Assembly: GCA_964582295.1 (NCBI GenBank)
Contig: CAZOQP010000001.1
Span: 9,588-73,587 of the forward strand
Direction of reading: 5' to 3'
DNA: 64,000 nt
Source of the DNA: an uncultured Candidatus Saccharibacteria bacterium
GTDB lineage: Bacteria; Patescibacteriota; Minisyncoccia; Phycocordibacterales; Zambryskibacteraceae
Shown here: one piece after another, positions 7,979 to 56,069 of the stretch
Numbering within the stretch: the first letter of the stretch is position 1
Layout: the number at the start of each line of letters is the position of its first letter
Notes under the pieces: generated by a model
What the model was told of the DNA's origin: nothing
The model's database searches: none
The model's input: the letters and a program-made list of their open reading frames with translations, nothing else
Translations under genes and position numbers: made by a program

Positions 7979-8449
7979 TTAGTTGTTGCAGTTAGTGGTC
8001 GCGGTCTGAAGGGCGTTCGTACGGCCAACAGAATTCCCGGTGGAATCTACGCACCAGTGGGTAAAGTTACCGTCAGACACTTTTAGAGGAACTGACACTG
8101 CCCATGCCGATCCGGATGAGTAACAACGGTTAGATGTTGAATCTCCTGCCGCTGTTTTTGCTGCGTTTATCATGCCGGAGATATTCGGGTCCTTAAAGAG
8201 GGTGCTGCTATCTGCGGGTGTCACAGAACACGCTGCCACGTTGAATGCCGCGCCGTAGCTGTTGTTTGAATCGTAGTAGAGTTCTGCCTGACCACGTACA
8301 TTCGCAAGGTTACCTTTAATGGCCGCGTTCGCACCCTTACCTCTGGCCGTATTCAAGCTTGCCAGAACGACAGAGGAAAGTACTCCTATAATCGCGATAA
8401 CAACTAGAAGTTCTATAAGGGTGAAGCCGCGGGCTTGATGTGCTTTCAT
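7979..8449 (-). CDS. pilA: major type IV pilin
   Basis: Start set at the internal Met (MKAHQARGFTLIELLVVIAIIGVLSSVVLASL). The purine-rich stretch AAGAAAGAAG lies upstream. Confidence 0.8.
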   Translation of the reverse strand: MKAHQARGFTLIELLVVIAIIGVLSSVVLASLNTARGKGANAAIKGNLANVRGQAELYYDSNNSYGAAFNVAACSVTPADSSTLFKDPNISGMINAAKTAAGDSTSNRCYSSGSAWAVSVPLKVSDGNFTHWCVDSTGNSVGRTNALQTATTNCNN

Positions 8450-11314: not shown

Positions 11315-13090
11315 TTACAGTCCTGCTATTTCTTCAAACGGTATCTTTCCTTCAAACGCCTTGAGCATTGCATCTTCTTTCATGGTAAGGAAACCTTTGG
11401 CCCGCGCCACTTTGTATATCTCATTCTCGCCCGCGTTCGAGAGAATTAGCCCTTCCACTTCTTTATCCATCTCAAGCACTTCCATAACAGCCATACGTCC
11501 GCGGGTCCCCGTAGGACAGTCCTCCGTAGGAGATATCCCGTAAAATTCCTTCCCTATCTTTACTTTCTTTTTATATTCTTCCGGCAAGTCCTCAAACTGC
11601 TTTTCAACCATAGTTTTTATGCTTCCTTCAAGCGGAAGCTTTTTGCCGGCGCCCGGGCAAAGCGTCCTCACCAGGCGCTGTGCGATAGCAAGGTTCAATG
11701 TCGGCGGGATAAGATACTGGTCAACCCCCATGTCTATCAGACGCGGAATGACGCCCACTACATTATTAGTGTGGATAGTTGAAAGCACTAAATGGCCGGT
11801 AAGCGCCGCCTGAATGGCGAGCTGTGCGGTTTCTTTGTCTCGAATCTCTCCCACCATGATAATGTCCGGGTCTTGTCTCAAAGTAGTGCGCAAGCCTGTT
11901 GCAAATGTATATCCGATGTCGGGGCGCACCTGCGATTGGGAAACGCCCGCGATGTTGTATTCAATAGGATCTTCAAGAGAAAGCACGTTCTTGTGGTCAC
12001 GGTCCATTTCCTGAAGCATGGCGTAAAGAGTGGTGGATTTTCCGGAACCGGTCGGGCCAGAGATAAGCACCAGTCCATACGGCCTTTCTATAGCGTTCCT
12101 TATAAGCGCCAGGTTTTCTTTTGAAAGGCCCAGTTCATCCAAAGTCTTCACTCCCTTGTTCTGGTCCAAAATTCTCATCACCACTTTCTCTCCGTAATAG
12201 GCGGGAAAAGTGGAAACACGGAAATCAACCTTGCGATCGCCCAGGCGCGCCGAAAAGCGGCTGTCCTGCGGTTTTCTTTTCTCATCCAGGCGCATAGCGG
12301 AAAGTATTTTGATACGCGCCACCACCGCCATATGCACTTTGGGCGGCAGGACAAGGGAAGTATCAAGAACGCCGTCAATACGGAAACGCACCCTTACACT
12401 CTCACCCATATGCTCTATGTGGACATCCGAGGCGTTGCCGTCTATTGCGTAGCGGAGAATTGTCTGCACCATTTTTGTAACAGGCGCATCCTCCACGATA
12501 GTAGACATTCCGTTCTTATCCGTGCGTGCGATAGTGCCAGTGATGTCTTCATCCAAACTCGTGTCGGTGGCTTCCTGCGGGGTGTCCTGGCCAGACTTCG
12601 CGGCCTTTTTAGTTTCCTCGGCTATTTCCGTTTCAAGCTCGCCCAAAACTTTTGTCACTTCGCCTGAAAGACCTTTGTATTGAGTTATTATTTTTTTGAA
12701 ATCTTCTTCCGTGATAAGAAAAAGCTTGTAAGGCATTTCAAGCTTTGATGAAATGAAATTCAAAGCGTCGCGCGCCTCTATGTTATCCGGATCAACAATG
12801 CCGACCTCAAGCACTCCGTCCACAACGGCAATAGGCACGAAGCGATAATACGTGGCCGACTCTTCAGGGATAAGCTCAAGCACACTGCCTGCCACCTCCG
12901 TTGTGGAAAGATCGCGGGTGGGGATGTCCAAATACTGCCCTTTGCTTTTTAAAATCTCCTCGGCATCAATACCGCGGTTTAGAAGAACTCTTTCAACTGT
13001 TATGCCCTTCCCTTCCGCTTCTTCTTGTATAGAAGGGATATCTTTGGCCGATATTAGTTTTTTGTCGGCAAGTATTTCAAGAAAGCTCAT
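11315..13090 (-). CDS. pilB: type IV pilus assembly ATPase (GspE/PilB) with N-terminal T2SSE_N domain
   Basis: 591 aa with Walker A GPTGSGKST and secretion-ATPase motifs. Confidence 0.9.
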   Translation of the reverse strand: MSFLEILADKKLISAKDIPSIQEEAEGKGITVERVLLNRGIDAEEILKSKGQYLDIPTRDLSTTEVAGSVLELIPEESATYYRFVPIAVVDGVLEVGIVDPDNIEARDALNFISSKLEMPYKLFLITEEDFKKIITQYKGLSGEVTKVLGELETEIAEETKKAAKSGQDTPQEATDTSLDEDITGTIARTDKNGMSTIVEDAPVTKMVQTILRYAIDGNASDVHIEHMGESVRVRFRIDGVLDTSLVLPPKVHMAVVARIKILSAMRLDEKRKPQDSRFSARLGDRKVDFRVSTFPAYYGEKVVMRILDQNKGVKTLDELGLSKENLALIRNAIERPYGLVLISGPTGSGKSTTLYAMLQEMDRDHKNVLSLEDPIEYNIAGVSQSQVRPDIGYTFATGLRTTLRQDPDIIMVGEIRDKETAQLAIQAALTGHLVLSTIHTNNVVGVIPRLIDMGVDQYLIPPTLNLAIAQRLVRTLCPGAGKKLPLEGSIKTMVEKQFEDLPEEYKKKVKIGKEFYGISPTEDCPTGTRGRMAVMEVLEMDKEVEGLILSNAGENEIYKVARAKGFLTMKEDAMLKAFEGKIPFEEIAGL

Positions 13091-14690: not shown

Positions 14691-15038
14691 TTCAACAGCA
14701 TTTTTCAAATAGCAATCGTTCGGGAGTCCCACTAAAAGAGACCACTCCGGGGCGTTTGCCCAAGTCTTAGTCTCTTTTAGTGGGACTCCCTCACTCTAAA
14801 TAACTCCAATTTGAAAAATGCTGTTGGATTCGCTTTAAGTTCTAATATTTAAGGAGCGAAGATAATACCCTTTTTCACACACGCGGGAGGTGATTTTAGA
14901 AATCAAGGAGTTGAGTAGGAAAATGGGAGTGTTTGAGGAAGCCGAAGGCTGACGAGTTGCCCATTTTACGTTATGAGACGACTATGATTTCGTAAGCACC
15001 GGAGCGGCAGCTGTTTGAAAAAGGGTGTTATCTGAGTG
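14691..15038. repeat. composite structured intergenic repeat, copy 1 (long hairpin + ~165-nt conserved core)
   Basis: Shares the core TTTTTCACACACGCGGGAGGTG.TTTTAGAAATCAAGGAGTTGAGTAGGAAAATGGGAGTGTTTGAGG...GAGTTGCCCATTTT.CGTTATGAGACGACTATGATTTCGTAA.CACCGGAGCGGCAGCTGTTTGAAAAA with copies at 39196 and 43847. Preceded by a ~134-nt hairpin (14691-14824). Confidence 0.8.
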
Positions 15039-15043
15039 ACGTC

Positions 15044-16168
15044 TTATATTATCTCCCTCAACTTCCTCAACCCCAATCCGATAGCAACCGCAAATTCAGG
15101 TCCCGTATCTTTAAGAACGTTCTCCAAAAAGGCGGGTGTTTCGGTTTTTGAAAACGGGTCACTCATCTCTACGGGCGTTTCAAAGCTTTCCTGTGCAAGG
15201 GTTGCCAATCCTTTGAGTGCCGAGCCGCCTCCCACGAAAAGTATCTTCTTTAGGTTTTTATTGTATTTGCGCTCAAAGTTTAATATCACGCGATTGGCCT
15301 CGGCAAAAATATATTCAAGCGAAAGATGCACGATGTCTTTCATATCTTTGTCGCCGCTATCTGTGAGGCCGACACTTCTTTTCATAACCTCCGCCTGATC
15401 TATCGGAAGTCCCAAAGATTTTGCAATGGCGATAGTGATGTCGTGCGAGCCGCGGTTTATAGTGTGTGAAAGCCGCACAATGCCGCGCTCCACCACATAA
15501 AGCTTGGTTGAAGCGGCGCCCATATCAAATATCATCACAGGCGCGATGGTTTCATCTAACGCCGCACGCATGGTGGAGAAAATTTCTATTTCGTAGAAAG
15601 TTGCTGAAAGCCCTGATGCCTTCACGATAGCGTCATATTTCTGGAGCACTGCATTGTGAATGGCGACCAGGAGCACATCCAAAGTTTTCTCGCGCGGCTT
15701 TGCAAGCACGGGCCCGCCTTCCGGATTGTCTTCTATCTCCACGAAATCTTTCGGGATAAGAGACCAATCAAGAGAGACTTCGGACATGGGAAGAGGGATA
15801 TACTTGCGGGCTTCTATCGGGATAAGGTTCTGAAGCTCCTTGGGGCCAACCTCCGGCACTTCAATAAGGGACATCAAGCTTGAGGAGAAAGGGATGGCAA
15901 GAGCGCATGATTTAGTGGACACATTCACTTCCTTTTCCTTCAGAAGATCGTTCAGGGCCTCTATTATTTTCTCTTTAGGAAGATTGGTGGCTTGCCCCAC
16001 GCTTCCCCCTGCATATGGACCGAGCGCCAATTCCCCGTATGTCTCAAGCACAGCCGTCTCGCCTTTTTTGCGGAGTTGCACTATCTTTATAGCTGAAGAG
16101 CCAATATCAATGCCGAGGATACTCTTTTCCTCTTTTTGAAAAATGCGGGAGAATGAAGGGAACTGCAT
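15044..16168 (-). CDS. pilM: type IV pilus assembly ATPase-like protein PilM (actin/HSP70 fold)
   Basis: 374 aa. The N-terminus ILGIDIGSSAIKIVQL matches the actin-like ATPase fold. Confidence 0.9.
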   Translation of the reverse strand: MQFPSFSRIFQKEEKSILGIDIGSSAIKIVQLRKKGETAVLETYGELALGPYAGGSVGQATNLPKEKIIEALNDLLKEKEVNVSTKSCALAIPFSSSLMSLIEVPEVGPKELQNLIPIEARKYIPLPMSEVSLDWSLIPKDFVEIEDNPEGGPVLAKPREKTLDVLLVAIHNAVLQKYDAIVKASGLSATFYEIEIFSTMRAALDETIAPVMIFDMGAASTKLYVVERGIVRLSHTINRGSHDITIAIAKSLGLPIDQAEVMKRSVGLTDSGDKDMKDIVHLSLEYIFAEANRVILNFERKYNKNLKKILFVGGGSALKGLATLAQESFETPVEMSDPFSKTETPAFLENVLKDTGPEFAVAIGLGLRKLREII

Positions 16169-18964: not shown

Positions 18965-19402
18965 TCATTTCTTATATAAAACAAAGAACGGTATTTCATC
19001 GATTCTTATATAGTTGAACATTTTATAATTTGCACGTCTAGCTGTTGAGGATAATTGACGCATTTTTAAATTTATTTTTGGAATAAAAGGATAGAATCTG
19101 ATTTCATGGTGTTTCTCCTTTTTATTTTTATCATCCCATTTAAAATTAGTTATAAGCGGCGGAACCATATAGCCTGATTTCATTACTTTTGAAATAATCT
19201 CCCACCCAGCACCAAAAATTATTGGCTTCGGTTTACTATTGTTTGTTTTTACTTGTGCACGAAAAAGGCATGCCTTACATTGAATATCATATAAGGGGTA
19301 ATTCTTGGGAAGCGCCATAAGTTTCTTTCCACAGTTAGGGCACGGAACAAGTTCTACAACCTCCAATTCTCCTGCATCCCCCGAATCCTTATTTTTACTC
19401 AT
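18965..19402 (-). CDS. DpnI-like PD-(D/E)XK nuclease catalytic domain (no winged-helix domain)
   Basis: 145 aa. PCPNCGKK...YDIQCKACLFRAQVK...GAGWEII...SSTARRANY parallels DpnI motifs (CPNCG, D..EFELK, APTARRAGW). QVK stands in place of ELK. Confidence 0.55.
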   Translation of the reverse strand: MSKNKDSGDAGELEVVELVPCPNCGKKLMALPKNYPLYDIQCKACLFRAQVKTNNSKPKPIIFGAGWEIISKVMKSGYMVPPLITNFKWDDKNKKEKHHEIRFYPFIPKINLKMRQLSSTARRANYKMFNYIRIDEIPFFVLYKK

Positions 19403-25828: not shown

Positions 25829-25876
25829 CCCACAATCTATTCCAGTATTCTCAAGAATACTGGAATAGATTGTGGG
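25829..25876. promoter_or_regulatory. 48-bp palindrome (22-bp perfect stems, loop TCAA) upstream of the ArsR-family regulator
   Basis: CCACAATCTATTCCAGTATTC-tcaa-GAATACTGGAATAGATTGTGG, about 55 bp upstream of the regulator start. Confidence 0.5.
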
Positions 25877-25930: not shown

Positions 25931-26200
25931 ATGAAAAATTTTAGACAACTCGAGCGATTGGTAAAAGGATTCGCCAATCACCGTAGAATCGAGATCCTCA
26001 ATCTTCTCGATAAGACTCCGGAACTTTCAGTATTTGAGGTTGCCGAAAGATTGAAGATCAACTTCAAGACTGCTTCAGAACACATCCTCCGTCTTGCTAT
26101 CGCCGGCCTGGTGGTGAAAAGAAACGAAGGAAATAACGTGCGACATGCACTTACCAACACCGGAAAATCTATTCTCAAATTCTTGAGAAGACTAGAATAG
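25931..26200 (+). CDS. ArsR/SmtB-family winged-helix transcriptional regulator
   Basis: Start set at the internal ATG (MKNFRQLERLVKGFANHRRIEILNLL...VFEVAERL...RHAL). The track ORF 25754..26200 runs through the upstream palindrome. Confidence 0.7.
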   Translation: MKNFRQLERLVKGFANHRRIEILNLLDKTPELSVFEVAERLKINFKTASEHILRLAIAGLVVKRNEGNNVRHALTNTGKSILKFLRRLE

Positions 26201-26253
26201 ATTTGGATAATAATTGTCCTGATCTTCTTATATTCATTTAGTACAATACCGCC

Positions 26254-28380
26254 ATGCTTGATGAACTCTTTCGACTGAATCCGGCTCAGAAATCCGCCCT
26301 GAAAAAACTGGGTATCACTTCCGTTGAATCTCTCCTTTACCATATCCCCACGCGCTACGCTTCTTTTGATGGGAATAATTCCATAGCGAGCGCGCGGGCA
26401 GGAGAAGATATCGCGCTCATAGTAAACATAGAAAAAATAGAGACCAAAAAAGGATTCCGCTCAAAAATACCAATGGCAACAGGGCGCGTATCAGACCCCA
26501 CAGGGAAAATGGACGTAGTGTGGCTTCGCCAGCCGTACATTGCACGCATGTATCTTGCCGGTTCCACCATAAAAATCTCTGGCAAAGTTTCGGAAAGGAA
26601 CGGAAAGATCTCAATGGTGAACCCTAAAGTGCATCCGCTCACAGGAGAAGAGAACACTCCAATCTTTAGCGGCAAAGAAGGAGAAAGTTTGACTCCTGTA
26701 TATGCGGAAAGCCGCGGAGTGACAAGCGAATGGCTGCGGAATGCGGCTATTCGTCTCATAAAAAACAAACTGCATGAAGCTATAGAAGATCCAATACCGC
26801 CGGAAATGCTTTCTCGTTTTAATCTGCCTACTTTGAAAACCGCTTTTGTGTGGGCGCACATGCCGAAAAAACACGAGCACGCAGAAGCCGCTCGCAAGCG
26901 CTTTGCATTTGAAGAAGTTTTTTTCATACAGTTGGAAAAGCAGAAAGAGCGTGCGGAATGGCAAGCCCATCAGGCATTCGTTATTGAACCGGCAGAAGAA
27001 ACAGAAAGATTCATGGAATCGTTCCCCTACTCGCTCACGGCGGGACAGAAAAAAGCTATTGCGGATATTTTCGGGGATTTTGGCTCGGGTCGGCCGATGG
27101 CGCGGCTTCTTGAAGGCGACGTCGGCTCCGGCAAGACGGCCGTGGCGGCCGCCACGGCCTACGCCACTATCCGCACCCGGCCCAAAGGGCAAACTTTCGG
27201 AGCGCTTCAGGTGGCATACATGGCGCCCACAGAAATACTGGCATCCCAGCATTTTGAATCCTTCATACAATATTTTGTGGGTTCAGGAATTCAGATAGGC
27301 CTCATTACCGGTTCCGGCTGCAGAAAATTCCCGTCCAAAATAAAACGAGACGGCTGGACGGATATTTCCAGAACACAATTATTGAAATGGGTTGAGAACG
27401 GAGAAATACCAATTCTCATAGGTACGCATGCGCTCATACAAAAATCCGTGAAATTCAAACACTTGGCATATGCTGTGGTGGACGAGCAGCACCGCTTCGG
27501 CACGCGCCAGCGCGCGGCCTTGATACAAAAAGACGGCCGCGCGCCGCATCTTCTCTCCATGACAGCCACCCCTATTCCCCGCACATTGGCTCTCACGGTG
27601 TTTGGCGATCTTGATCTCACAGTGTTAGACGAAATGCCGCCGGGACGCAAACCAATAATGACCAAAATAGTGCCGCCGGATCAAAGATTTCATGCATATG
27701 AAGAAGTACGAAAGGAATTGACAGCGGGCAGGCAGGCGTATGTAATCTGCCCGCGTATAGACGAGCCGGATCCGGACAAGGAAATGGCAGTGCAGGCAAA
27801 ATCGGTGAAAGAAGAAGCGGCACGCCTCAAGAAAGAAGTTTTTCCTGAATACGAGATAGGAATTTTGCACAGCAAGATGAAGCCCTCGGAAAAAGATGAA
27901 GTAATGAAAGAATTTTCGGAAGGGCGCATACATATTTTGGTCGCAACATCGGTTGTGGAAGTGGGAGTGAACGTTCCGAATGCCACGTCTATCATCATTG
28001 AAGGTGCAGAAAGGTTCGGCCTGGCACAGCTTCATCAGCTGCGCGGACGTGTGGTGAGAAGCACTCATCAATCACGCTGTTTCGTGTTCTCTGAAGGAAC
28101 GAGTGAAAATACTTTTAGACGTCTGAAATCTTTTGAAAAAGCCAAAAATGGTTTTGAATTGGCTGAATTTGACCTGGAAACACGCGGTGCGGGAGACCTT
28201 GCAGGCGACAAGCAGTGGGGAGTTACCGACCTCGGTATGGAAGCCCTTAAAAATATAAAGATGGTTGAAGCGGCACGGAACGAAGCCAAAACCATAATTG
28301 AAAGCGATCCGGAGCTTTCAAAACATCCATCTCTCCAATCTCACCTGTCCGGACGCCGAACTAAAATTCATTTGGAATAG
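26254..28380 (+). CDS. recG: ATP-dependent DNA helicase RecG
   Basis: 708 aa with wedge domain, Walker A GDVGSGKT, DEQH box and a C-terminal helicase domain. Confidence 0.93.
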   Translation: MLDELFRLNPAQKSALKKLGITSVESLLYHIPTRYASFDGNNSIASARAGEDIALIVNIEKIETKKGFRSKIPMATGRVSDPTGKMDVVWLRQPYIARMYLAGSTIKISGKVSERNGKISMVNPKVHPLTGEENTPIFSGKEGESLTPVYAESRGVTSEWLRNAAIRLIKNKLHEAIEDPIPPEMLSRFNLPTLKTAFVWAHMPKKHEHAEAARKRFAFEEVFFIQLEKQKERAEWQAHQAFVIEPAEETERFMESFPYSLTAGQKKAIADIFGDFGSGRPMARLLEGDVGSGKTAVAAATAYATIRTRPKGQTFGALQVAYMAPTEILASQHFESFIQYFVGSGIQIGLITGSGCRKFPSKIKRDGWTDISRTQLLKWVENGEIPILIGTHALIQKSVKFKHLAYAVVDEQHRFGTRQRAALIQKDGRAPHLLSMTATPIPRTLALTVFGDLDLTVLDEMPPGRKPIMTKIVPPDQRFHAYEEVRKELTAGRQAYVICPRIDEPDPDKEMAVQAKSVKEEAARLKKEVFPEYEIGILHSKMKPSEKDEVMKEFSEGRIHILVATSVVEVGVNVPNATSIIIEGAERFGLAQLHQLRGRVVRSTHQSRCFVFSEGTSENTFRRLKSFEKAKNGFELAEFDLETRGAGDLAGDKQWGVTDLGMEALKNIKMVEAARNEAKTIIESDPELSKHPSLQSHLSGRRTKIHLE

Positions 28381-28454
28381 TCCGCCCGCTTGGACTTGAA
28401 CCAAGGACCCTCGAGGTATAAGCTCGATGCTCTAACCAACTGAGCTACGGGCGG
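28381..28454 (-). tRNA. tRNA-Ile (anticodon UAU), CCA not encoded
   Basis: Canonical cloverleaf: CCGCCCG-TA-GCTC-AGTTGGTTA-GAGC-A-TCGAG-CTTATAC-CTCGA-GGGTC-CTTGG-TTCAAGT-CCAAG-CGGGCGG-A. Anticodon positions 34-36 are UAU. Confidence 0.8.
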
Positions 28455-39195: not shown

Positions 39196-39612
39196 ACGTC
39201 GCTCGGGGTATTCTCTGAAAATGGAGGCACGCACTCAGACACAAAAAGAGACCACTCCGGGGCGTGCCCCGGGTCTTAGTCTCTTTTCGTGTCTGAGTGC
39301 TTTACTCAAAAAACATTTTCAGAGAATACCCCTCGCTCCAAAATCAAAATCCACGTAGGACAGTCCTACGTGGATTTGGTAGCGGAGGGCATGACTCGCT
39401 CCTTAAGAAATAAAACTTAGAGCGAACCCAACAGCATTTTTCACACACGCGGGAGGTGGTTTTAGAAATCAAGGAGTTGAGTAGGAAAATGGGAGTGTTT
39501 GAGGAGGCGGATTGTGCCGACGAGTTGCCCATTTTGCGTTATGAGACGACTATGATTTCGTAAACACCGAAGCGGCAGCTGTTTGAAAAATGCTGTTGAG
39601 TGAGCGGTATTT
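39196..39612. repeat. composite structured intergenic repeat, copy 2 (with nested hairpin insert flanked by TCGCTC direct repeats)
   Basis: Same conserved core as copies 1 and 3 (39429-39598). The flanking helix CAACAGCATTTTT / AAAAATGCTGTTG covaries relative to the other copies. Extra hairpin AAATCCACGTAGGAC-ag-TCCTACGTGGATTT between CTCGCTC repeats. Confidence 0.8.
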
Positions 39613-41021
39613 TATAAATGATATTCTTTTCCTTTTTCTAGAACCTGGGGAGGAATGTCTAAAGTATCTTTTATGCGCTGGGCGAGGAAGCTTGCAGATT
39701 TTAGTTCTCCCATACCTATAAAAACTTTTTTGGGATGAGGAGTTAATTTTGATACAAATTCCACAAGATGGTCAGAATCTTTGTGGCCTGAAAAACCGTG
39801 AATAGAAATTATCCTGGCGCGCACTTTTATTTTCCCTGTTCCTATCATCACTTCCTTTGCCCCCTCTTCAAGCATTCTTCCCACCGTGCCCGCTGCCTGA
39901 TAGCCCATAAGAAGCACTGTGGTGTCCGGGTCCGGAAGATAACGTGCTTCGTGGGAAAGGATGCGGCCTCCCGAAGACATTCCGGAGCCCGCAAGAATTA
40001 TTTTCGGCCCGAGCACTTTTTCTATTGTGTGTGAATCGGAGACACGCGCTGTTTCTTTGAGAGTTGCGAAACGGAAAAGGCCGTCCTTTTCATTCATGCT
40101 TTGAAGCGCCCCTTCATTAAAAAGCTCGGTCATTTTTTCATATATATGCGTCACCCGGATAGCGAGAGGAGAATCTAAAAACACAGGCACGCGCGGCAGA
40201 AGGCTGGCATCCCACATTCCGTTCAAAAGCGAAAGAACTATCTGGGTACGCTCAATTGAAAAACACGGAATAAGAATAGTGCCGCCATTCTCCACGGCTT
40301 TTTCAATAGTATGTCTGAAATTGGCTTCTCTTTCCTCTATACCTTCATGGTTCCGGTCACCATATACGCTCTCCATAAGCAGAAAATCTGGACCCGGCGG
40401 GATTTCGGTATCCCGCAGAAGGAGTGACGGGGAATTACCCAGGTCTCCTGTTGCTAAAAGAGAACACTCCCCTGTAGGTGTTTTCATGTTTATCCAGTAC
40501 ATAGCTGAACCCAAGATGTGGCCAGCGTCGTACGGAACTACGGAAACGCCGGGAGCTATCTCCGTACTTTCATGATAAGAAACCGTTTGCCACAGGGAGA
40601 AAGCGCGCACAAGATGAGCTTCATTGAAAGCGGGCGGGACATTCGCTATGCGGCTTTTTTCGGCCTCAATATGCGCCGCATCCTGAAGCGATACTTCGGC
40701 AATAGCTTTGGTCTCACGGGTTGAATAAATAGTGCCGGTAAAACCTTCTTTCACAAGCTGGCCTATGCGGCCGATATGATCCAAATGCGCGTGAGTAATA
40801 AGAAGAGCACGAATTTCTTTTGCATCATATGCAAATTGCTTTCTGTTCTCCCTTTCATTCTCAGGTGTTCCCTGATGAAGACCACAATCAATAAGAATTT
40901 TTACGGGTGCACCTATTCCATCCGCAGGCGGTATACGGATCTCAAAATTAGCACCTGTAACGGTGCCGGCGCCGCCCCATGGAGAAAGTACGATGCCGGA
41001 ATTTTCTTCAGGTTTCGTCAT
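39612..41021 (-). CDS. MBL-fold metallo-hydrolase, beta-CASP ribonuclease family (RNase J/CPSF-like)
   Basis: 469 aa with HAHLDH motif, beta-CASP and RNA-specificity domains. Confidence 0.8.
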   Translation of the reverse strand: MTKPEENSGIVLSPWGGAGTVTGANFEIRIPPADGIGAPVKILIDCGLHQGTPENERENRKQFAYDAKEIRALLITHAHLDHIGRIGQLVKEGFTGTIYSTRETKAIAEVSLQDAAHIEAEKSRIANVPPAFNEAHLVRAFSLWQTVSYHESTEIAPGVSVVPYDAGHILGSAMYWINMKTPTGECSLLATGDLGNSPSLLLRDTEIPPGPDFLLMESVYGDRNHEGIEEREANFRHTIEKAVENGGTILIPCFSIERTQIVLSLLNGMWDASLLPRVPVFLDSPLAIRVTHIYEKMTELFNEGALQSMNEKDGLFRFATLKETARVSDSHTIEKVLGPKIILAGSGMSSGGRILSHEARYLPDPDTTVLLMGYQAAGTVGRMLEEGAKEVMIGTGKIKVRARIISIHGFSGHKDSDHLVEFVSKLTPHPKKVFIGMGELKSASFLAQRIKDTLDIPPQVLEKGKEYHL

Positions 41022-41374
41022 GATTGTTTAGGAGACAGAAAATAAATAGTGGCGCCAGCTGCTGCGATCGCCGTGAAAACATCATACAAAGTGTCGCTCA
41101 GGAAATTATCTGAAACAAATGTAGTGCCTGTCTGAAATTCAAATATCTCCCAGAACAAAGCAAGAAGAAGTACCACTAGAAGAGCGTAGGAGCGTTTCAA
41201 ATATACGAGTGCAAGGGCGGCAACGCCAATGCCTATGAGCGCGTGCATTAAAAAATCAGACCATTGGTATCTCCAGTACCAAAAACCATGAAGAGCGGAG
41301 CGATGAAAGACCGACGCCGCAAAAATAGAGAAAAATGAAAGGGCAAGAGCAAATGGCCGCCGGGCTGGATGCAT
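41018..41374 (-). CDS. hypothetical membrane protein
   Basis: 118 aa with 3 to 4 TM helices. Confidence 0.55.
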   Translation of the reverse strand: MHPARRPFALALSFFSIFAASVFHRSALHGFWYWRYQWSDFLMHALIGIGVAALALVYLKRSYALLVVLLLALFWEIFEFQTGTTFVSDNFLSDTLYDVFTAIAAAGATIYFLSPKQS

Positions 41375-43846: not shown

Positions 43847-44190
43847 AAAATGTCGCTCGGGGTGATGACGAAAAGAGTACGCATAAAAATCTGCTGATTT
43901 TTTGCTCACCCTCGCGCCGTCGCGCTGCACAGCCTCTTTTCGTCATCACCCCTCGCTCCTTAAGAGTTGGAACTTAGAGCGAAAAGTGCAGTATTTTTCA
44001 CACACGCGAGAGGTGGTTTTAGAAATCAAGGAGTTGAGTAGGAAAACGGGAGTGTTTGAGCAACACCCTAACATACGATATATCGTATGTTAGGGTGTTG
44101 CGAGTTGCCCATTTTCCGTTACGAGACGACTATGATTTCGTAACCACCGGAGCGGCAGCTGTTTGAAAAATACTGCACTTTGAGCGGTCA
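43847..44190. repeat. composite structured intergenic repeat, copy 3 (apex replaced by a 42-bp perfect palindrome)
   Basis: Core at 43986-44178. The flanking helix GTGCAGTATTTTT / AAAAATACTGCAC covaries. The apex carries CAACACCCTAACATACGATATATCGTATGTTAGGGTGTTG. Upstream hairpin GGGGTGATGACGAAAAGAG...CTCTTTTCGTCATCACCCC. Confidence 0.8.
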
Positions 44191-44193
44191 TCT

Positions 44194-45468
44194 TTAGTAT
44201 TCTCGAGCGGTAATCTGCGCGCCCAATTTTTTCACAACATCAAGAATAACTGAAACCACAATAAGGAGTGCTGTACCACCGATAGCAAGCGCTTGGAAGC
44301 CGGTCAAAGCTCGCATAACGAGAGGAAGGACAGCGATAACGCCGAGGAAGAGAGCACCAATGAGAGTGAGGCGGGTCAAGATCTTTGCAACATATTCGGA
44401 TGTGGACTGGCCCGGGCGAACTCCGGGAATGAATGCCCCGTTTTTCTGCAAATTATTAGCCATCTGATCTGGATCAAATGTAACGGCAGTGTAAAAATAT
44501 GTGAACAAAAAGATGAGAATGAAATAAGAGACGCCGTAGAACCACTGATTAGCAAGGATAATGGTACCTGTCGCAGCTATCTGCCTTATCACTTCATTTC
44601 CTGCGGTGGACAAGAAGTTGAGGATCATTTGAGGGAAAAGGAGTATGGAAAGAGCAAAGATAATTGGAATAACTCCCGCCTGGTTGATGCGAATAGGAAG
44701 ATAGGTGGACAAGCCGCCATAGACACGGTTGCCTCTCACTCTTTTTGCATAAGTTACTGGAATGGGCCGCTCGGCTTCTGTTACTACCACCACTCCGAGA
44801 ATAACTGCCACGGATGCCACCAGGAAAGCCGCGTACACAGGGATCTGTGCTGGAGTGAAGGAGATAAGAAGCTGGCCCAAGCTCTGAGGCAGAGCAGCCA
44901 CGATTCCAGCAAAGATGATGAGGGAAACACCGGAACCCACGCCGTATTCGGAAATAAGCTCTCCCAGCCACATAAGAAGAATTGAACCAGCTGTGATGAT
45001 AGCCACGTTCAGGAACATTGCTCCAGCCCCAAGCGGCTCAAGCGCACCTTGGCGGGTGAGGAGGGTAAGAAAGGCAACTCCCTGAAGGACTGCCAAAGGC
45101 ACCGTGAGTAAACGTGAATACTGTGCAAAGCGCTTGCGCCCTGCATCCCCTTCTTCCTGCATCATGGCCTTGAGTTTCGGGAAGATGATGGTCATGAGCT
45201 GCATGATGATGGAGCCGGTAATGTAAGGGCCGACGCCCAACATGATTATTGAAAGATTGGAAAGACCACCGCCTGTGAAAATGTTCAAAAGACCCAGGAA
45301 CTGGTTCTGAGCAAAGAATTCCGCCAGGCGCGAAGGATCAACACCCGGAATAGGAATGACCGAAAGCACCCGGAAAATGAACAAGATAGCGAGAACGAAA
45401 AAGATGCGCTTGCGCATCACGCTGTCTTCAAAAAGGAGTTTCAGCTTTTGGACAAATTCGTTCAACAT
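44194..45468 (-). CDS. secY: preprotein translocase subunit SecY
   Basis: 424 aa with 10 TM segments. Follows rplO. Confidence 0.95.
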   Translation of the reverse strand: MLNEFVQKLKLLFEDSVMRKRIFFVLAILFIFRVLSVIPIPGVDPSRLAEFFAQNQFLGLLNIFTGGGLSNLSIIMLGVGPYITGSIIMQLMTIIFPKLKAMMQEEGDAGRKRFAQYSRLLTVPLAVLQGVAFLTLLTRQGALEPLGAGAMFLNVAIITAGSILLMWLGELISEYGVGSGVSLIIFAGIVAALPQSLGQLLISFTPAQIPVYAAFLVASVAVILGVVVVTEAERPIPVTYAKRVRGNRVYGGLSTYLPIRINQAGVIPIIFALSILLFPQMILNFLSTAGNEVIRQIAATGTIILANQWFYGVSYFILIFLFTYFYTAVTFDPDQMANNLQKNGAFIPGVRPGQSTSEYVAKILTRLTLIGALFLGVIAVLPLVMRALTGFQALAIGGTALLIVVSVILDVVKKLGAQITAREY

Positions 45469-51418: not shown

Positions 51419-51766
51419 TTATTTTTTTACTGCTTCAGCCGGAGCTGCCTTGGATGCCTGGGCGGAAGCTATTTCAGCTTCCTTTTTCTTGGTTTCCAGT
51501 TCCTTCTGCATCTTTCCTCCGTGCTTTATGAATTTGCGGGTGGGAGAGAATTCGCCCAAGCGGTGACCCACCATATCTTCCGTAACGAAAACCTCAATGT
51601 GTTCCCGGCCGTTATGGACCCCAAAGGTGTGCCCCACCATCTCCGGAGCTATCTGGCTGTCTCTTGCCCAGGTCTTTATCACTCCGGCAGAGCCGGGCTT
51701 TTTACCCTCAATCTTCTTGAGGAGTTTTTCATATACATAGGGTCCTTTTGAGGATGAACGTGTCAT
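51419..51766 (-). CDS. rpsS: 30S ribosomal protein S19 (C-terminal Lys/Ala-rich extension)
   Basis: S19 core ([13 protein letters not shown]...[35 protein letters not shown]). 115 aa. Confidence 0.9.
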
Positions 51767-51826: not shown

Positions 51827-52714
51827 TCAACGGGTAGGTCTATTCCTAAAAACGGAGATTTTCTCCTTCAATTTATACGCATTCCCATGTCTCAATAGCC
51901 CCAGATAAGACTGCACCGTTTCCGCCTTAACATCACCATTTTCGAGATTTTTCATCATCCTTCGCTTGGTAGTGGTTCTCAATACGCGATAATCATGAAA
52001 ATGCACCCAGCCCAGGAAATCCACACCTGAAGCCAAGGTTTTAATGAATACCTTGTCCGGATGAAGAGTGAGTTTAAGCTTCTCTCCTAGATAACATACG
52101 ATATATCGTATGTTATCTAGGAGGTTTCCTTTGTCATGGTGGAGTATTACGAAATCATCTGCATAGCGTATGTAGTGTTTTACTTTGAGCGTGTGCTTCA
52201 TGTATTGATCAAACTCGTTCATGTAGACATTTACCAGAAGCTGGGAGGTGAGGTTCCCGAGGGGCAGTCCAATGCCAGAAGCAGTGCTTGAGAAGCTTCC
52301 TATGACCTTTTGGAGAAGCCACATGGTGTCCTCATCTTTTATATGCTTGTTCAGGATTTCAATGAGTATTGAATGATCAATTGATGCGAAAAACTTGCGC
52401 ACATCGCATTTCAATATAAAACATGTGCGTGTCCTGTTGTTTGAAACTTTATATGAAAATCTTTTAAATCTCTCCATCGCCTTGTGGGTGCCTTTAAAGT
52501 TCCGGCAGGAATAGGAATCGTGTATGAATCTTTTGTCAAAGTACGGATACAAAACCCTGTATATGGCGTGGTGGAGCAGTCTGTCCCTCACGCTCGCCTT
52601 GTGGATATTCCTCGGCTTGGGGTCCGAAATGTTGAAAGCTGAATATCCTCCATGTGTATATGTTTTTCCGGCCAAATCCTGATGCAAAGAGAGTATGTTG
52701 TCCATGAGCCGCAA
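51827..52714 (-). CDS. diversity-generating retroelement reverse transcriptase
   Basis: 295 aa. RT motifs 1-7 with IRYADDFVIL (motif 5) and the DGR-specific motif 4 variant LGNLTSQ (I/LGxxxSQ, in place of QGxxxSP). No maturase or endonuclease domain. Confidence 0.85.
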   Translation of the reverse strand: MRLMDNILSLHQDLAGKTYTHGGYSAFNISDPKPRNIHKASVRDRLLHHAIYRVLYPYFDKRFIHDSYSCRNFKGTHKAMERFKRFSYKVSNNRTRTCFILKCDVRKFFASIDHSILIEILNKHIKDEDTMWLLQKVIGSFSSTASGIGLPLGNLTSQLLVNVYMNEFDQYMKHTLKVKHYIRYADDFVILHHDKGNLLDNIRYIVCYLGEKLKLTLHPDKVFIKTLASGVDFLGWVHFHDYRVLRTTTKRRMMKNLENGDVKAETVQSYLGLLRHGNAYKLKEKISVFRNRPTR

Positions 52715-52826: not shown

Positions 52827-53213
52827 TTGAAGTCCCCCCCCCCCGCAGATTTCAGTAGTCATCTTATTCCTGTAATCATAAAGCTTAAAGACCTATATGG
52901 CCTATGGCAAGGATATTTGGCACACTTTCCGAAGTCAAAACGTTTTACACTCGGTTCCAAGCTTGATGACCTATTTTTGAGCGCCATTGAAAATTGCTTT
53001 TTAGCTAGTTACTCTTCAGGTGAAGAAAAGAACACATATGTTGACCGCTCAATCTCACGAGTGGATCTCATAAAATTATTACTTCAACTTGCATGGGAAA
53101 CTAGAGTCCTTGATACGAACAAATATTCTCATTTATCCGAAAATCTATCAGAGGTTGGGAAAATGCTTGGTGGATGGAAAAGACAACTGACAAGAAAAAC
53201 TCCCCCGCGGTGA
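52827..53213 (+). CDS. Avd-like four-helix-bundle protein (IVS-encoded protein family, DGR accessory variability determinant homolog)
   Basis: 128 aa with a TTG start. The sequence pattern ...FPKSKRFTLGSKLDDLFLSAIENCFLASYS...RVDLIKLLLQLAWETRVLD... is typical of four-helix-bundle/IVS proteins. It sits 23 bp from the TR but on the opposite strand to RT, TR and VR. Confidence 0.7.
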   Translation: MKSPPPADFSSHLIPVIIKLKDLYGLWQGYLAHFPKSKRFTLGSKLDDLFLSAIENCFLASYSSGEEKNTYVDRSISRVDLIKLLLQLAWETRVLDTNKYSHLSENLSEVGKMLGGWKRQLTRKTPPR

Positions 53214-53236
53214 TACGGGGGAGAACCATAATAGTG

Positions 53237-53365
53237 GCGCACGGCGAGGAACCGGCAACGCTCATCCCACTCGTTGTCGTTCCAGTTCAGATTGAGCTTG
53301 CGCTTAGAATCGTTCACGTCGAGATACGGAACGTTGCGATTGTCGTCCAACTGCGAGACGGAGCC
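53237..53365 (-). repeat. DGR template repeat (TR), 129 bp
   Basis: Near-identical to 53706-53834. All 14 mismatches have A in this copy (minus-strand sense) and G or T in the other. Confidence 0.85.
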
Positions 53366-53612
53366 TTGTACGACAAACCATCCATACCACCACCCATTGA
53401 ATAATCCCCGGGTTGAATCTTATTCGTGACCTTTGTGTCACATAGTTTGTCGCACCAACTTTCTCTGGTTTTTACCAAACCCGGAAACTCTCTTTCGGAA
53501 GCCGTGGCCGCCGAAACTCTCATTACTCGGGCGTGCGAACAAGTTACCCAAAGCCGTAACCGTAGGTTTTTCACTTGTCTCAATTATTGTATAGAAAAAA
53601 TTTACATATGAA

Positions 53613-53642
53613 AACTCCGTCGGACAGCTGTCCGACGGAGTT
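53613..53642 (-). terminator. 30-bp perfect palindrome AACTCCGTCGGACAG|CTGTCCGACGGAGTT + T-rich tract, 3' of the VR gene
   Basis: About 60 nt downstream of the VR end. It could also be the hairpin/cruciform element that follows DGR VRs (IMH-associated). Confidence 0.6.
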
Positions 53643-53700
53643 GTTTCCAAAGCCCAAGTACCAAGGCCAAAAACGAAGCCAAAGCTCAAGGGCCCAAGTA

Positions 53701-54309
53701 CTACTTGCGCACGGCGAGGAACCGGCAACGCTCACCCCACTCGTCGTCGCTCCAGTCCAGACTGAGCCCGCGCTCAGAATCGTCCACGTCGAGAAACGGA
53801 ACGTCGCGAAAGTCGCCCAACTGCGAGACGGAGCCGAGAGCGATAATGGGAAATCTCCGTTGAACCTCCGGAAATGTTGCTCCGAAAGCCAGAAGTTCCT
53901 CCATGGTAGCCGGGCGCATTCCCATCTTGTCGATTTCTTTCTTCACTTCATCGGTCGCAATAACACGATTTAAGTGAATGAGTTCGACGGTGGTCTCCAC
54001 CTTACCCTTACCCTTTACAGGGAAGCGCTCAGTGGTAATATCATCGTTTTTCCAATCGTACCGGCCGGATGCGATCATCTCCGCGAGCGTCATGGAATAA
54101 TCCACGACGACTTTGAGAACGAGCGGGCCCAGGCCGAGGAAATCCCGAAGCTCCCCGCGGGGTTTGTTGAAACCCGTCGCGAGAGCTTCCAGAAAATCCG
54201 GCAGGATGCCGTCGGAGACCGCTACCGCCAACTGTTCCTTGCTCACCCCTTTCTGGTCAATGAGGGTAAGGATGTGTCCCGCCTGCGGCAGTGTTGCGTT
54301 GGTGCTCAT
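53701..54309 (-). CDS. DGR variable (target) protein, VR at C-terminus
   Basis: 202 aa with no signal peptide or TM helix. The last ~43 codons are the VR (...VSQLGDFRDVPFLDVDDSERGLSLDWSDDEWGERCRFLAVRK). The TR encodes the Asn-rich template version (DDNRNVPYLDVNDSKRKLNLNWNDNEWDERCRFLAVR). Confidence 0.8.
   Translation of the reverse strand: MSTNATLPQAGHILTLIDQKGVSKEQLAVAVSDGILPDFLEALATGFNKPRGELRDFLGLGPLVLKVVVDYSMTLAEMIASGRYDWKNDDITTERFPVKGKGKVETTVELIHLNRVIATDEVKKEIDKMGMRPATMEELLAFGATFPEVQRRFPIIALGSVSQLGDFRDVPFLDVDDSERGLSLDWSDDEWGERCRFLAVRK
53706..53834 (-). repeat. DGR variable repeat (VR)
   Basis: 129 bp matching the TR except at 14 TR-adenine positions (11 A-to-G, 3 A-to-T). Confidence 0.85.
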
Positions 54310-54520
54310 AGGGTTCTCCTATGTGGCGCTACCTTTAGGGTAGCTGGTTCGCTAAATGTGCGACCTTAGTGTCGCCATAGCTTTTAATCCTCCATCTTGA
54401 AGAGCTAAAAGCTATGGCGAACAAGTAGTTCTTAAGGTTCTTTATCTTTTTCCATTATACACCTATTGACATATTTTGTCAAGTACTTCTTGGGTACCAA
54501 AAAATAGCCCTTTGTTGAGC

Positions 54521-55227
54521 TGTTTTTTACATAGGCAAGACCTATGTATAATTAAGATATGGCAATTAGAGAAATCTCCTTTGCTCCTGGATGCTATTAT
54601 CACATTTACAATCGAGGTAATAGCAAGCAGAAAATATTTCTTGATAAGAACGACTATCACCGTTTCATTAAGCTCCTTTATATTTCAAACTCACGGCAAA
54701 ACTTTGCCATCAGAAACTTTTCCAAGAAAAATATATACGACGTTGATCGCGGACAGAAACTGGTATCCATGGGAGCTTTTTGTTTAATGTCAAATCATTT
54801 CCACATTCTTTTATGCCAGCCGGAGAATGGCGACATCAGCAAGTTCATGCAAAAATTGAGCACATCTTACTCGATGTATTTTAATAAGAAATATGAACGG
54901 ACTGGCGGACTGTTTGAGAGTAAGTTCAAATCTGAATATGTAGAGACCGATCGTCATCTGAAATACCTATTTTCTTACATACACCTCAATCCATTAAAGA
55001 TCGTTGACCCGAAATGGAGAGAAAAAAGTGGGAATGATTTATCGGGGTCAATGAAATTCTTGGAAAATTACAATTTTTCTAGCTTTGATGAGTACATTGG
55101 GAAATCCCGTATTGAACAAGTTATTTTGGATAGACAGGATTTTCCAGAGTATTTCCCAGCCGAAAAAATATTTTTAGAAGAAATTACTGAATGGATTAAC
55201 TTTACATAGGCAAGACCTATGTAAGTC
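54521..55227 (+). mobile_element. IS200/IS605-family Y1 (HUH) transposase gene of RAYT/TnpA-REP type, flanked by identical subterminal hairpins
   Basis: CDS 54559..55209 (216 aa) with HIYNRGN...LMSNHFHILL (HUH) and a downstream Tyr region (YSMYFNKKYERTGGLFESKFKS). Both ends carry TTACATAGG-caaga-CCTATGTAA (54521-54547 and 55201-55227). Confidence 0.75.
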
Positions 55228-55229
55228 TG

Positions 55230-56069
55230 CTACTTTTTCCCTACCTTCCTTCGCTTCACTATGTAAACGTTTGAGTATTTCTTGGCACGGCGGGACTTCT
55301 GGCCCTTACCTGTCGGCTTGCCGTGGCGAGTGCGGGCACGACGGTGACCTCGGCCGGAGCGGCCTTCGCCTCCTCCGTGCGGATGGTCAACAGGGTTCAT
55401 GGCAGAACCACGAACGGTAGGGCGGATACCAAGCCAGCGAGAGCGTCCGGCTTTGCCGAGGTTCATCAGGCGATTTTCTGAATTGGAAACTTCTCCGACG
55501 CTTGCCCATGCATTGCTGTGTATCTTTCGCACTTCAGTTGAAGGCATTTTTATATCAACATATTCCCCGTCTTTTGCTACTACTTCCGCATAGTTTCCTC
55601 CGGAGCGAGCTACTTTCGCCTCTCCACCTTTTTTAAGCGAGATGTTGTACACAAAAGTTCCAACGGTCAGGCGGTGGAGAGGAAGACGGTTACCAGGAAT
55701 TTCCGCGGCGGTTTCTGAAGTTACAAAAGTGTCGCCAACCTTTGCTGATTTAGGCAGGAGAACGTAGCGCTTTGCGCCATCGTGGTAAAAGACGAGACCA
55801 ATGTAGCCAGAGCGGTTCGGATCGTACTCAACGCTCTTCACCACATAAGGAATATCGAATTTGTCGTATGAAAAATCAATGTCTCGGAAAAGGCGCTTGT
55901 GGCCACCACCCTTGTGCTGAACGGTAATGCGTCCGTGATGGTTGCGACCCTTATGGCGCTTGCGGCCAAAGGTGAGTTTTTTTGCAGGCTCAGAGGCAGT
56001 GGTTACCTCCTTGTACGGCAAAACCGTCATGTGCCTGCGGGATTTAGTTGTAGGTTTAAAACTTTTCAT
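55230..56069 (-). CDS. rplB: 50S ribosomal protein L2
   Basis: 279 aa. Confidence 0.93.
   Translation of the reverse strand: MKSFKPTTKSRRHMTVLPYKEVTTASEPAKKLTFGRKRHKGRNHHGRITVQHKGGGHKRLFRDIDFSYDKFDIPYVVKSVEYDPNRSGYIGLVFYHDGAKRYVLLPKSAKVGDTFVTSETAAEIPGNRLPLHRLTVGTFVYNISLKKGGEAKVARSGGNYAEVVAKDGEYVDIKMPSTEVRKIHSNAWASVGEVSNSENRLMNLGKAGRSRWLGIRPTVRGSAMNPVDHPHGGGEGRSGRGHRRARTRHGKPTGKGQKSRRAKKYSNVYIVKRRKVGKK

Follow-up and report, generated by a model that had tools for sequence, protein, structure and literature searches.

A position-conserved coding palindrome in the reverse transcriptase gene of a Patescibacteria diversity-generating retroelement, a candidate site for a TrpR-like regulator

Candidate-phyla bacteria are rich in diversity-generating retroelements (DGRs) and mostly uncultured, and the control of DGR activity in cells is largely unknown. 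Here, we report a 40-bp perfect palindrome within the coding sequence of a DGR reverse transcriptase (RT) gene, together with the family of sequences to which it belongs. The palindrome lies in a 64,000-nucleotide stretch of DNA (the window) from an uncultured Candidatus Saccharibacteria bacterium of the Patescibacteria (GenBank assembly GCA_964582295.1, contig CAZOQP010000001.1, positions 9,588 to 73,587).

Palindromic operators of helix-turn-helix (HTH) repressors, intragenic and auxiliary ones included, are well described (the TrpR operator, lac O2 in lacZ, gal OI in galE, and the PurR roadblock in purB). Rickettsia palindromic elements (RPEs) are in-frame selfish insertions in coding genes that add residues to the protein, and the DGR of Bordetella phage BPP-1 has a target-recognition hairpin or cruciform 3' of its variable repeat (VR). 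Nematomorpha mitochondria carry perfect inverted repeats of up to 284 bp in protein-coding genes (PMC6649704, which also mentions RPEs). Repetitive extragenic palindromic (REP) sequences and their REP-associated tyrosine transposases (RAYTs) form short, lineage-specific palindromic repeats, often at gene 3' ends, with a dedicated gene flanked by the repeat (PMC3733652). Template switching at quasipalindromes leaves length-neutral patches that perfect or extend inverted repeats, in coding DNA and transcription-factor sites as well (PMC7202029, PMC8604942, PMC13100816).

We regard one point as settled: the RT palindrome belongs to a sequence-specific family, is conserved and under DNA-level constraint, and is neither an insertion nor an artefact. 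Judged from sequence, its most likely nature is a binding site for a protein, lying within the RT coding sequence. Quite possibly, though we say so tentatively, a TrpR-like regulator recognises it as an intragenic site, and arm-to-arm templated correction has extended its symmetry.

An earlier note on the window had described two perfect palindromes, of 40 and 42 bp, that share an identical 24-bp core, and both are present (Table 1); its coordinates and length for the 42-bp palindrome were right, while the string printed for it lacked the outer G and C. The 40-bp palindrome is in frame, as the note had it, and is translated on the minus strand as LLDNIRYIVCYLG, between the YADD and LHPDK motifs. 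It contains the canonical 26-mer ATAACATACGATATATCGTATGTTAT (52091-52116) and the shared core TAACATACGATATATCGTATGTTA (52092-52115). The 42-bp palindrome consists of GCAACACCC, the core (44069-44092), and GGGTGTTGC, the outer arms being locus specific. It forms the apex of the third copy of a long-hairpin repeat, where copies 1 and 2 have only short apical hairpins (18-20 nt) of unrelated sequence, again in agreement with the note; relative to these copies, the core amounts to ~22 to 24 extra nt. Exactly two places in the window hold the core, even at up to 3 mismatches, and none did in 100 shuffles; the longest palindrome across 30 dinucleotide-preserving shuffles was 20 bp, so the note's view that such palindromes exceed chance stands. 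Predicted hairpins on both strands of both sites have 18 to 19 bp, about -29 to -33 kcal/mol, and z near -9 (-29 kcal/mol and z = -8.8 for the RNA hairpin of the RT palindrome). Zero-spacer perfect palindromes of 22 to 42 bp number nine in the window, both core copies included.

Homologues of the RT occur in their thousands in Patescibacteria, at 65-74% identity. Across an alignment of 28 of them the segment was free of indels, with N[IV]RYIVC[YF]L recurrent. For comparison at the DNA level, 80 RT loci were sampled from species-representative genomes, of which 73 were parsed, plus the window. Counted from the YADD Tyr through the HPDK Lys, the stretch was 38 amino acids long in 74 out of 74 RTs. 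A perfect palindrome was centred exactly at +62 nt, counted from the first base of that Tyr codon, in 11 of the 73 parsed loci (more by a looser parse, L046 and L071); the centre is the bond in the R-Y-I Tyr codon that separates TA from T. Its length was 40 bp in the window, 38 bp in L002, 32 bp in L001 and L071, 26 bp in L016, 20 bp in L004 and L025, 18 bp in L026 and L046, 14 bp in L006, and 12 bp in L021 and L042. Elsewhere in the RT gene, the parsed loci had no comparable position-fixed palindrome, only short ones for which codon bias is a plausible source (KVFIKT encoded as GTTTTTATAAAAAC in 4 loci, or 5 with a 20-bp extension in L049; HAIYRM encoded as CATGCGATATATCGCATG in L069).

Because the segment keeps its native length and many RT lineages have the palindrome at an identical nucleotide position, the RT copy is not an insertion, and the mobile mini-element proposed in the note fails for it. 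An RPE-like in-frame insertion was rejected likewise, no residues being added relative to orthologues: the RPE resemblance is that of a palindromic repeat tolerated in protein-coding genes, the difference that here the core replaces residues. The note had also reasoned that the palindrome would be ancient, not mobile, if RT homologues showed it and the core occurred nowhere else. The homologues do share the nucleotide palindrome, which makes it ancient; the core, however, does occur elsewhere.

Constraint at the nucleotide level is visible in the codons. Arms differ by genome with pairing kept (ACATACG/CGTATGT, AATTACG/CGTAATT, ATGTACG/CGTACAT, CTACG/CGTAG, and CTACC/GGTAG). All seven R-Y-I loci encoded the tripeptide as CGA-TAT-ATC, codons with frequencies of 0.15, 0.66, and 0.27 elsewhere in these genes (background probability, 0.027 per locus), and the chance of the central codon choice overall was ~1e-11. 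Relative to its closest relative (L114; 34 bp), the window reaches 40 bp through synonymous changes in one Leu codon (CTT to CTC) and one Gly codon (GGT to GGA), which makes plausible the outward extension implied by the hairpin-templated palindromisation that the note had suggested. The pairing phase sets codon position 1 against position 1 and position 2 against position 3, so that the wobble bases take up most of the coding constraint. Complementary outer arms are already present when the conserved L-[DE] and [FY]-L residues are encoded as CTAGA and TCTAG. At the protein level, the signature [RQPSL]Y[IM] was found at the site in 43 of the 120 closest homologous proteins, and LRYIV at a second site, ~61 amino acids before YADD, in about 8 of the 120. 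The second site of L280 is a perfect TACTACGATATATCGTAGTA, identical to the 20-bp palindrome at site 1 of L004. A neighbor-joining tree of the RTs was star-like. The resemblance of ACATACGCTAT to ACATACGATAT in the window raised the idea that the left arm derives from the YIRYADD codons nearby; it was rejected, as YIRY codon usage in other genomes did not track the arm. A genome-wide palindrome-making bias was likewise rejected as a predictor: other perfect palindromes were equally dense in the flanks of RT loci with and without the palindrome (5.8 versus 6.4 per 100 kb), so a genome-wide mutational bias does not predict which RTs carry it.

The RT copy is thus built like the coding palindromes of Nematomorpha, a perfect inverted repeat in which both arms encode functional protein, gene length is unchanged against homologues, and degenerate codon positions keep the pairing. 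In both, repeat identity is all or none, which suggests active arm conversion. The present palindromes differ in their bacterial host, shorter length (12 to 42 bp versus up to 284 bp), and zero spacer, and in that a single core recurs in genes, between genes, and across genomes, in association with a DNA-binding protein.

Metagenome contigs were scanned for exact matches to the 20-mer ACATACGATATATCGTATGT, which gave 83 sites at 77 loci, in Patescibacteria. All were perfect palindromes (22 to 46 bp) with the canonical form ATAACATACGATATATCGTATGTTAT and locus-specific outer arms. RT genes held 14, all at site 1 (12 resolved individually), and 69 were at non-RT sites, in line with the dispersed family that the note had supposed. 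By context, 42 sites were flanked by tandem genes, 11 by convergent and 1 by divergent ones; 12 were at contig edges, and 17 were inside open reading frames (ORFs). Coding hosts other than RT were miaA (twice), RNase HII, Fpg, and a glycosyltransferase, with the GCGATATATCGC variant in TatD; the miaA and RNase HII copies presumably involve no length change, set against the Escherichia coli sequences. After the regulator's own locus, described below, RT was the most frequent host, and the other sites clustered in or near DNA-metabolism genes (uvrA, recA, recR, SMC, Fpg, RNase HII, and TatD). Copy number was low, at 1 to 3 perfect 20-mers per large contig (1 in a 484-kb contig; 2 in the window). 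The core was identical across contigs whose adjacent SMC, UvrA, and TrpR-like proteins were 59-69% identical (~34% for a second TrpR-like subfamily), an invariance that needs selection or a sequence-specific driver. Within 663 kb of RT-centred sequence, 12 of 13 CGATATATCG palindromes were inside RT genes, and no core copy was near a template repeat (TR) or VR in the 80 DGR loci. The three-copy repeat itself was absent from 1.07 Mb of related loci; the note had suggested, as one option, a hairpin that ties the DGR RT gene to this repeat family, a link that we reject, the shared core being all that connects them. Viral contigs scanned with the 14-mer TACGATATATCGTA gave matches mostly at chance level, bar some unrelated 18-mers. 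In IMG/VR (L158-L277), extension of the 14-mer to the 18-mers TTTACGATATATCGTAAA and AATACGATATATCGTATT exceeded chance, with arms of at least 9 nt in ~30% of matches versus ~6% expected; these may be unrelated phage operators.

The commonest neighbour of the core is a gene of 142 to 152 amino acids (16 loci; 143-amino-acid query) with the palindrome on both sides, 6 to 29 nt from its start and stop, which puts the pairs ~465 bp apart. In most cases uvrA comes next (13 loci) or the gene lies between recA and efp, and it always adjoins uvrB/uvrA/uvrC, a UvrD-type helicase, or recA; divergent loci have either the order uvrB-X-uvrA-uvrC or a UvrD-type helicase beside the gene. The protein matched Pfam Trp_repressor just under threshold and TrpR-like PDB chains by profile, and its AlphaFold model (predicted local distance difference test score, 73) gave a target-normalised template modelling score of 0.65 to 0.76 against E. 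coli TrpR. Homologues are few, all in Patescibacteria. Divergent homologues (40-63% identity), and likewise a paralogue, have bracketing variants of their own, CTTACGATATATCGTAAG among them. By identity to the 143-amino-acid query, these are L283 (63%; ACAACATACGATATATCGTATGTTGT), L282 (62%; TATCATATATGATA), L278 and L284 (53-54%; CACAATATA-CTGA-TATATTGTG), and L285 (40%; TTAAACTTACGATATATCGTAAGTTTAA); the paralogue, in L122, is 42% identical to P0147 and bracketed by CAGCGATATATCGCTG. The second TrpR-like subfamily, ~34% identical, lies between recA and efp with the canonical core. RT variants and bracket variants have three classes in common (ACATACG..., GCGATATATCGC, and TCATATATGA). A promoter-like element adjoins or overlaps the site at the TrpR-like gene in L144, where a promoter-like GTGTCA-17-TATAAT ends 1 nt before the upstream palindrome, whose right arm contains ATG, and in L122, where TATAAT overlaps the end of the palindrome. 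The site downstream of SMC is similar, a -10-like TATATT preceding the core. The RT copy is intragenic with no promoter-like element seen, and the 11 convergent sites are likewise without promoter overlap. Every lineage examined has a dyad site that adjoins, and co-varies with, the HTH gene.

Long palindromes bracket two other regulator-like genes in a like layout. One, an ArsR/SmtB-like HTH gene of ~89 amino acids (~25932-26200) in the window, is bracketed by two copies of a long palindrome, AATCTATTC...GAATAGATT (25829-25876, with 23-nt arms, and 26166-26203). The other, a 186-amino-acid PaaX-like gene in L036, stands between perfect palindromes with a shared core at 1347-1412 (66 bp) and 2029-2064 (36 bp).

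If the palindrome is a site for the TrpR-like regulator, the RT copy would be an old, vertically inherited copy of a lineage-specific recognition site, kept at the nucleotide level, with TACGATATATCGTA as its minimal core, extending in this lineage to ATAACATACGATATATCGTATGTTAT. The site's home would be the 143-amino-acid TrpR-fold HTH gene beside excision-repair and recombination genes, and a dimer of the protein would most likely bind the symmetric core as duplex DNA. Within RT, the site may serve as an operator or roadblock inside the gene, moving along with the (horizontally mobile) RT gene and tying expression of RT, hence of the DGR, to the regulator; this genome would then have its second site at 44060-44101. 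Locus-specific symmetry past the core would come from arm-to-arm templated correction (quasipalindrome template switching), seeded in RT by the self-complementary CTAGA/TCTAG codons. We consider it possible, though doubtful, that targeted DGR hypermutation in Patescibacteria is wired into a DNA-repair regulon, with a TrpR-fold regulator among uvrA/uvrB/uvrC/recA; its operator would be carried in the RT coding sequence of an entire clade, encoded as the NIRYIVCY helix, with arm-to-arm conversion maintaining its perfection.

The likeness to HTH operators lies in a dyad-symmetric site of 20 to 26 bp, in extra copies within coding sequences, and in a TrpR-fold gene with the site over its own promoter and start codon (putative autoregulation); by analogy, the RT site could act as a roadblock or auxiliary operator. 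Unlike such operators, the present sites have perfect symmetry well past plausible contacts and many copies at 3' ends or between convergent genes, and the position of the RT copy is kept across a whole RT clade. In its genomic features the family is a candidate TrpR-type operator. The family is also set apart from REP/RAYT systems. It is a lineage-specific palindromic family, often 3' of genes, that flanks a dedicated gene on both sides, but that gene encodes a TrpR-fold HTH protein instead of a Y1 (HUH) transposase, the sites show no GTAG/CGTC tag, and the palindromes are perfect, few (2 copies in the 64-kb window), and found inside ORFs as well. The Y1_Tnp gene of the window is flanked by another hairpin. 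REP/RAYT identity was rejected on these points.

Several observations weigh against recognition by a TrpR-like regulator. A 504-kb contig is the only genome in which RT and bracket variants could be compared, and there the sequences differ: the TrpR-like gene (L278) is bracketed by CACAATATA-CTGA-TATATTGTG, and the RT (L280) has TACTACGATATATCGTAGTA at site 2 and a decayed quasi-palindrome at site 1. This test is weak because paralogues with other variants exist in other genomes; an unseen paralogue could account for the mismatch, though none was seen. The 64-kb window has no TrpR-like gene, uvrA, or recA, nor recR, SMC, efp, miaA, or rnhB; a TrpR-like candidate at 19121-19303 was a spurious weak match to a Cys-rich protein. 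The excess of convergent over divergent contexts, with 17 sites in ORFs, is closer to what 3'-end hairpins or selfish repeats would give than to the pattern of classical operators. The extent of perfect symmetry past the core varies between sites of one contig, and protein contacts therefore do not explain it. Finally, the occurrence of TACTACGATATATCGTAGTA at site 1 (L004) and site 2 (L280) of different RTs looks like copying, not independent selection. Extended symmetry, convergent excess, and the 20-mer at two RT sites together argue for arm-to-arm correction and occasional copying between AT-centred hairpins. This points to the mechanism proposed for quasipalindromes (PMC7202029, PMC8604942, PMC13100816) and for Nematomorpha coding palindromes (PMC6649704); template switching would account for the locus-specific outer arms but not for the recurrence of one 14- to 26-bp sequence.

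The main rival reading is a self-maintaining and possibly selfish coding palindrome that has no function in RT and whose use by the TrpR-like protein is secondary; we think this unlikely, if not greatly so. AT-centred hairpins would swap and homogenise their arms by replication template switching. The core would thereby be pasted, in a length-neutral way, from one hairpin apex to another and among helix- or strand-coding segments that tolerate it, with arm-to-arm conversion restoring its perfect symmetry afterwards. Coding copies without length change in RT, the identical 20-mer at two RT sites in different genomes, and the 11:1 ratio of convergent to divergent contexts all suit such a process, as does the position of the core at the apex of pre-existing hairpins (repeat copy 3 and the GC-rich terminator stems of L130 and L148). 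Among non-RT sites with arms of at least 13 nt, well over one-third reach at least 16 nt versus ~2% by chance (an estimate). Zero-spacer perfect palindromes abound in the window and its relatives, and coding genes of these genomes clearly take up insertions of other palindromic elements. Published precedents are coding palindromes that are actively maintained although no function is known for them (PMC6649704) and the homogenisation of inverted-repeat arms by template switching within coding DNA (PMC8604942). Against it stand the invariance of the core between diverged lineages, the precise bracketing of, and co-variation with, TrpR-like genes, the low copy number, the equal palindrome density around RT loci with and without the palindrome, and the enrichment of sites in or near DNA-metabolism genes. 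A hairpin specific to the DGR is improbable. It would act as an 18- to 20-bp mRNA stem or a DNA cruciform, serving RT dosage (through RNase III or ribosome pausing), an RNA end, or retrohoming. The predicted stability, the fixed position in many RT lineages with compensatory arm changes, and the concentration of CGATATATCG palindromes inside RT genes speak for it, and DGRs reportedly use a DNA hairpin near the VR (a finding attributed to Guo et al., 2011). But the same sequence occurs at ~69 non-RT sites, other coding genes included, and an RNA hairpin requires neither a self-complementary loop nor a single fixed sequence. Imperfect RT copies have few mismatches, which are not consistently G-U on the sense strand, and no U-tract follows the hairpin on that strand. 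A VR-proximal recognition hairpin was rejected, no core copy lying near TR or VR in any of the 80 DGR loci; the resemblance to the BPP-1 hairpin is that of a DNA hairpin associated with a DGR, but the palindrome is inside the RT gene, ~1.6 kb from the VR, and unrelated in sequence to the hairpin after this VR (53613-53642). An intrinsic terminator was also rejected, the RT copy being inside the ORF with an AT-rich centre and followed on the sense strand by AGAAGCTTAAAC.

Very improbable, to our mind, is a DNA-uptake or recombination signal that accumulates through biased uptake and homologous replacement. It would yield length-neutral coding copies and a bias to genome-maintenance genes, and such copies, the enrichment near uvrA, recA, recR, SMC, fpg, and rnhB, the frequent position at gene 3' ends in hairpin form, and a window-encoded PilM (type IV pilus assembly) agree with it. 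Copy number, however, is orders of magnitude under that of known uptake sequences (hundreds to thousands per genome expected), the element is a 22- to 26-bp dyad and not a 9- to 12-mer, and it brackets and co-varies with one regulator gene specifically; a DNA uptake sequence was rejected. Chance, a by-product of codon usage, or an assembly artefact is effectively refuted. Codon bias alone does give short palindromes from some conserved RT peptides (GTTTTTATAAAAAC and CATGCGATATATCGCATG), but shuffles never exceeded 20 bp, the central codon choice is far too improbable, and the same palindrome, always in frame, recurs in independent assemblies from many samples, which disposes of the artefact that the earlier note had allowed for.

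Literature searches (Patescibacteria palindrome, TrpR-like regulon, and RT-internal palindrome) found no description, and as far as these searches show this is the first long, position-conserved coding palindrome in bacteria that is common to unrelated genes. A DNA site in the RT gene that is shared with the brackets of a regulator among excision-repair genes offers a testable handle on DGR control. Were the repair-regulon reading true, RT expression would follow the state of the regulon, and the control element would move with the mobile RT gene; were the palindrome selfish, it would have a length-neutral way to colonise coding DNA. The case bears on how far DNA-level symmetry dictates protein sequence and on whether template switching shapes transcription-factor sites.

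The window is a ribosomal-protein region of the Patescibacteria (candidate phyla radiation) with minus-strand transcription. A block consisting of the DGR cassette and an IS200-like Y1 transposase gene is inserted in the S10 operon between rplB (55230-56069) and rpsS (51419-51766). The cassette has the parts expected of a DGR (Table 1): a DGR-type RT, an Avd, and a TR/VR pair with mismatches at TR adenines (those inspected had A on the TR side). On the same strand, rpsS begins 60 nt past the RT stop codon, and a related RT in L280 precedes rpsP by 13 nt. Upstream of 52714 the RT frame stays open to ~52856-52864 and encodes a conserved N-terminus (...NDIISLDNLLEAWREFLRGKRNRKDVQEF). This stretch has no ATG, GTG, or TTG before 52714 and runs into the start of the bAvd gene, which is oriented the other way; either translation of the RT begins at a non-canonical codon or its N-terminus is short. 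The 53613-53642 palindrome looks like the terminator of the DGR target gene. A tRNA-Ile (anticodon UAU) is at 28380-28454.

Table 1. Coordinates of the palindromes and DGR features in the 64-kb window
Feature	Position	Strand	Remarks
DGR reverse transcriptase ORF	51827-52714	-	Pfam RVT_1; LGNLTSQ and YADD present
LHPDK motif	52052-52066	-	Closes the 38-amino-acid YADD-to-HPDK segment
40-bp perfect palindrome	52084-52123	none	CTCCTAGATAACATACGATATATCGTATGTTATCTAGGAG; zero spacer; in RT coding sequence
YADD catalytic motif	52154-52165	-	Palindrome centre 62 nt past first base of Tyr codon
bAvd-like accessory gene	52827-53213	+	Opposite to TR and RT; Pfam PF22296
DGR template repeat (TR)	53229-53376	-	85% identical to VR
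30-bp perfect palindrome	53613-53642	none	TTTT after it on minus strand; unrelated to core
DGR variable repeat (VR)	53699-53846	-	3' end of target gene 53701-54309
Long-hairpin repeat copy 3	43952-44196	+	~200-nt repeat; other copies 14812-15048 and 39395-39616
42-bp perfect palindrome	44060-44101	none	Apex of repeat copy 3, between secY and adk

The three-copy repeat forms a single long imperfect hairpin, with compensatory changes in the outer stem and a nearly invariant interior. The plus strand folds better (-71 versus -53 kcal/mol), and G-U pairs favor it. No credible Rfam match was found, and the repeat may be a new structured RNA or a miniature inverted-repeat transposable element. Further zero-spacer perfect palindromes of 22 to 42 bp are at 27138, 32765, 41410, 53613, 59643, 61203, and 63132; most of the seven resemble bidirectional terminators (A-tract, GC-rich stem, and T-tract) and are self-complementary through the loop. 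Hairpins in the window with arms of at least 11 nt have a zero spacer in 9 of 20 cases, far above random tetraloops. One 22-bp palindrome is inside a recG-like ORF (26254-28380), and a 36-bp one is upstream of the gene at 41018-41374.

The Y1_Tnp (IS200-like) gene (54559-55209) is flanked by direct hairpin copies, TTTACATAGGCAAGACCTATGTA, at 54526-54548 and 55201-55223. This hairpin, TACATAGG-CAAGA-CCTATGTA, is distinct from the core palindrome, and its stems are only loosely similar; hairpins like it are at 54306-54324 and 39353-39371. Gene and hairpins together look like an IS200/IS605-type or RAYT-like unit.

Related loci also carry in-frame mini-elements that resemble RPEs and belong to sequence families other than the core. 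L283 has in-frame hairpins with 23- to 24-nt arms in uvrB (8105-8155) and uvrA (11558-11606), the uvrA copy adding 17 amino acids. In uvrA of L085, GGCGGATCCGCC-centred palindromes of 30 and 38 bp are at 5083 and 5200; as in RPEs, these unrelated elements in uvrA of L283 and L085 add residues. L113 has CCTGCCTGCCGGCAGGCAGG in an EF-P gene (1357), and L017 has three further sites.

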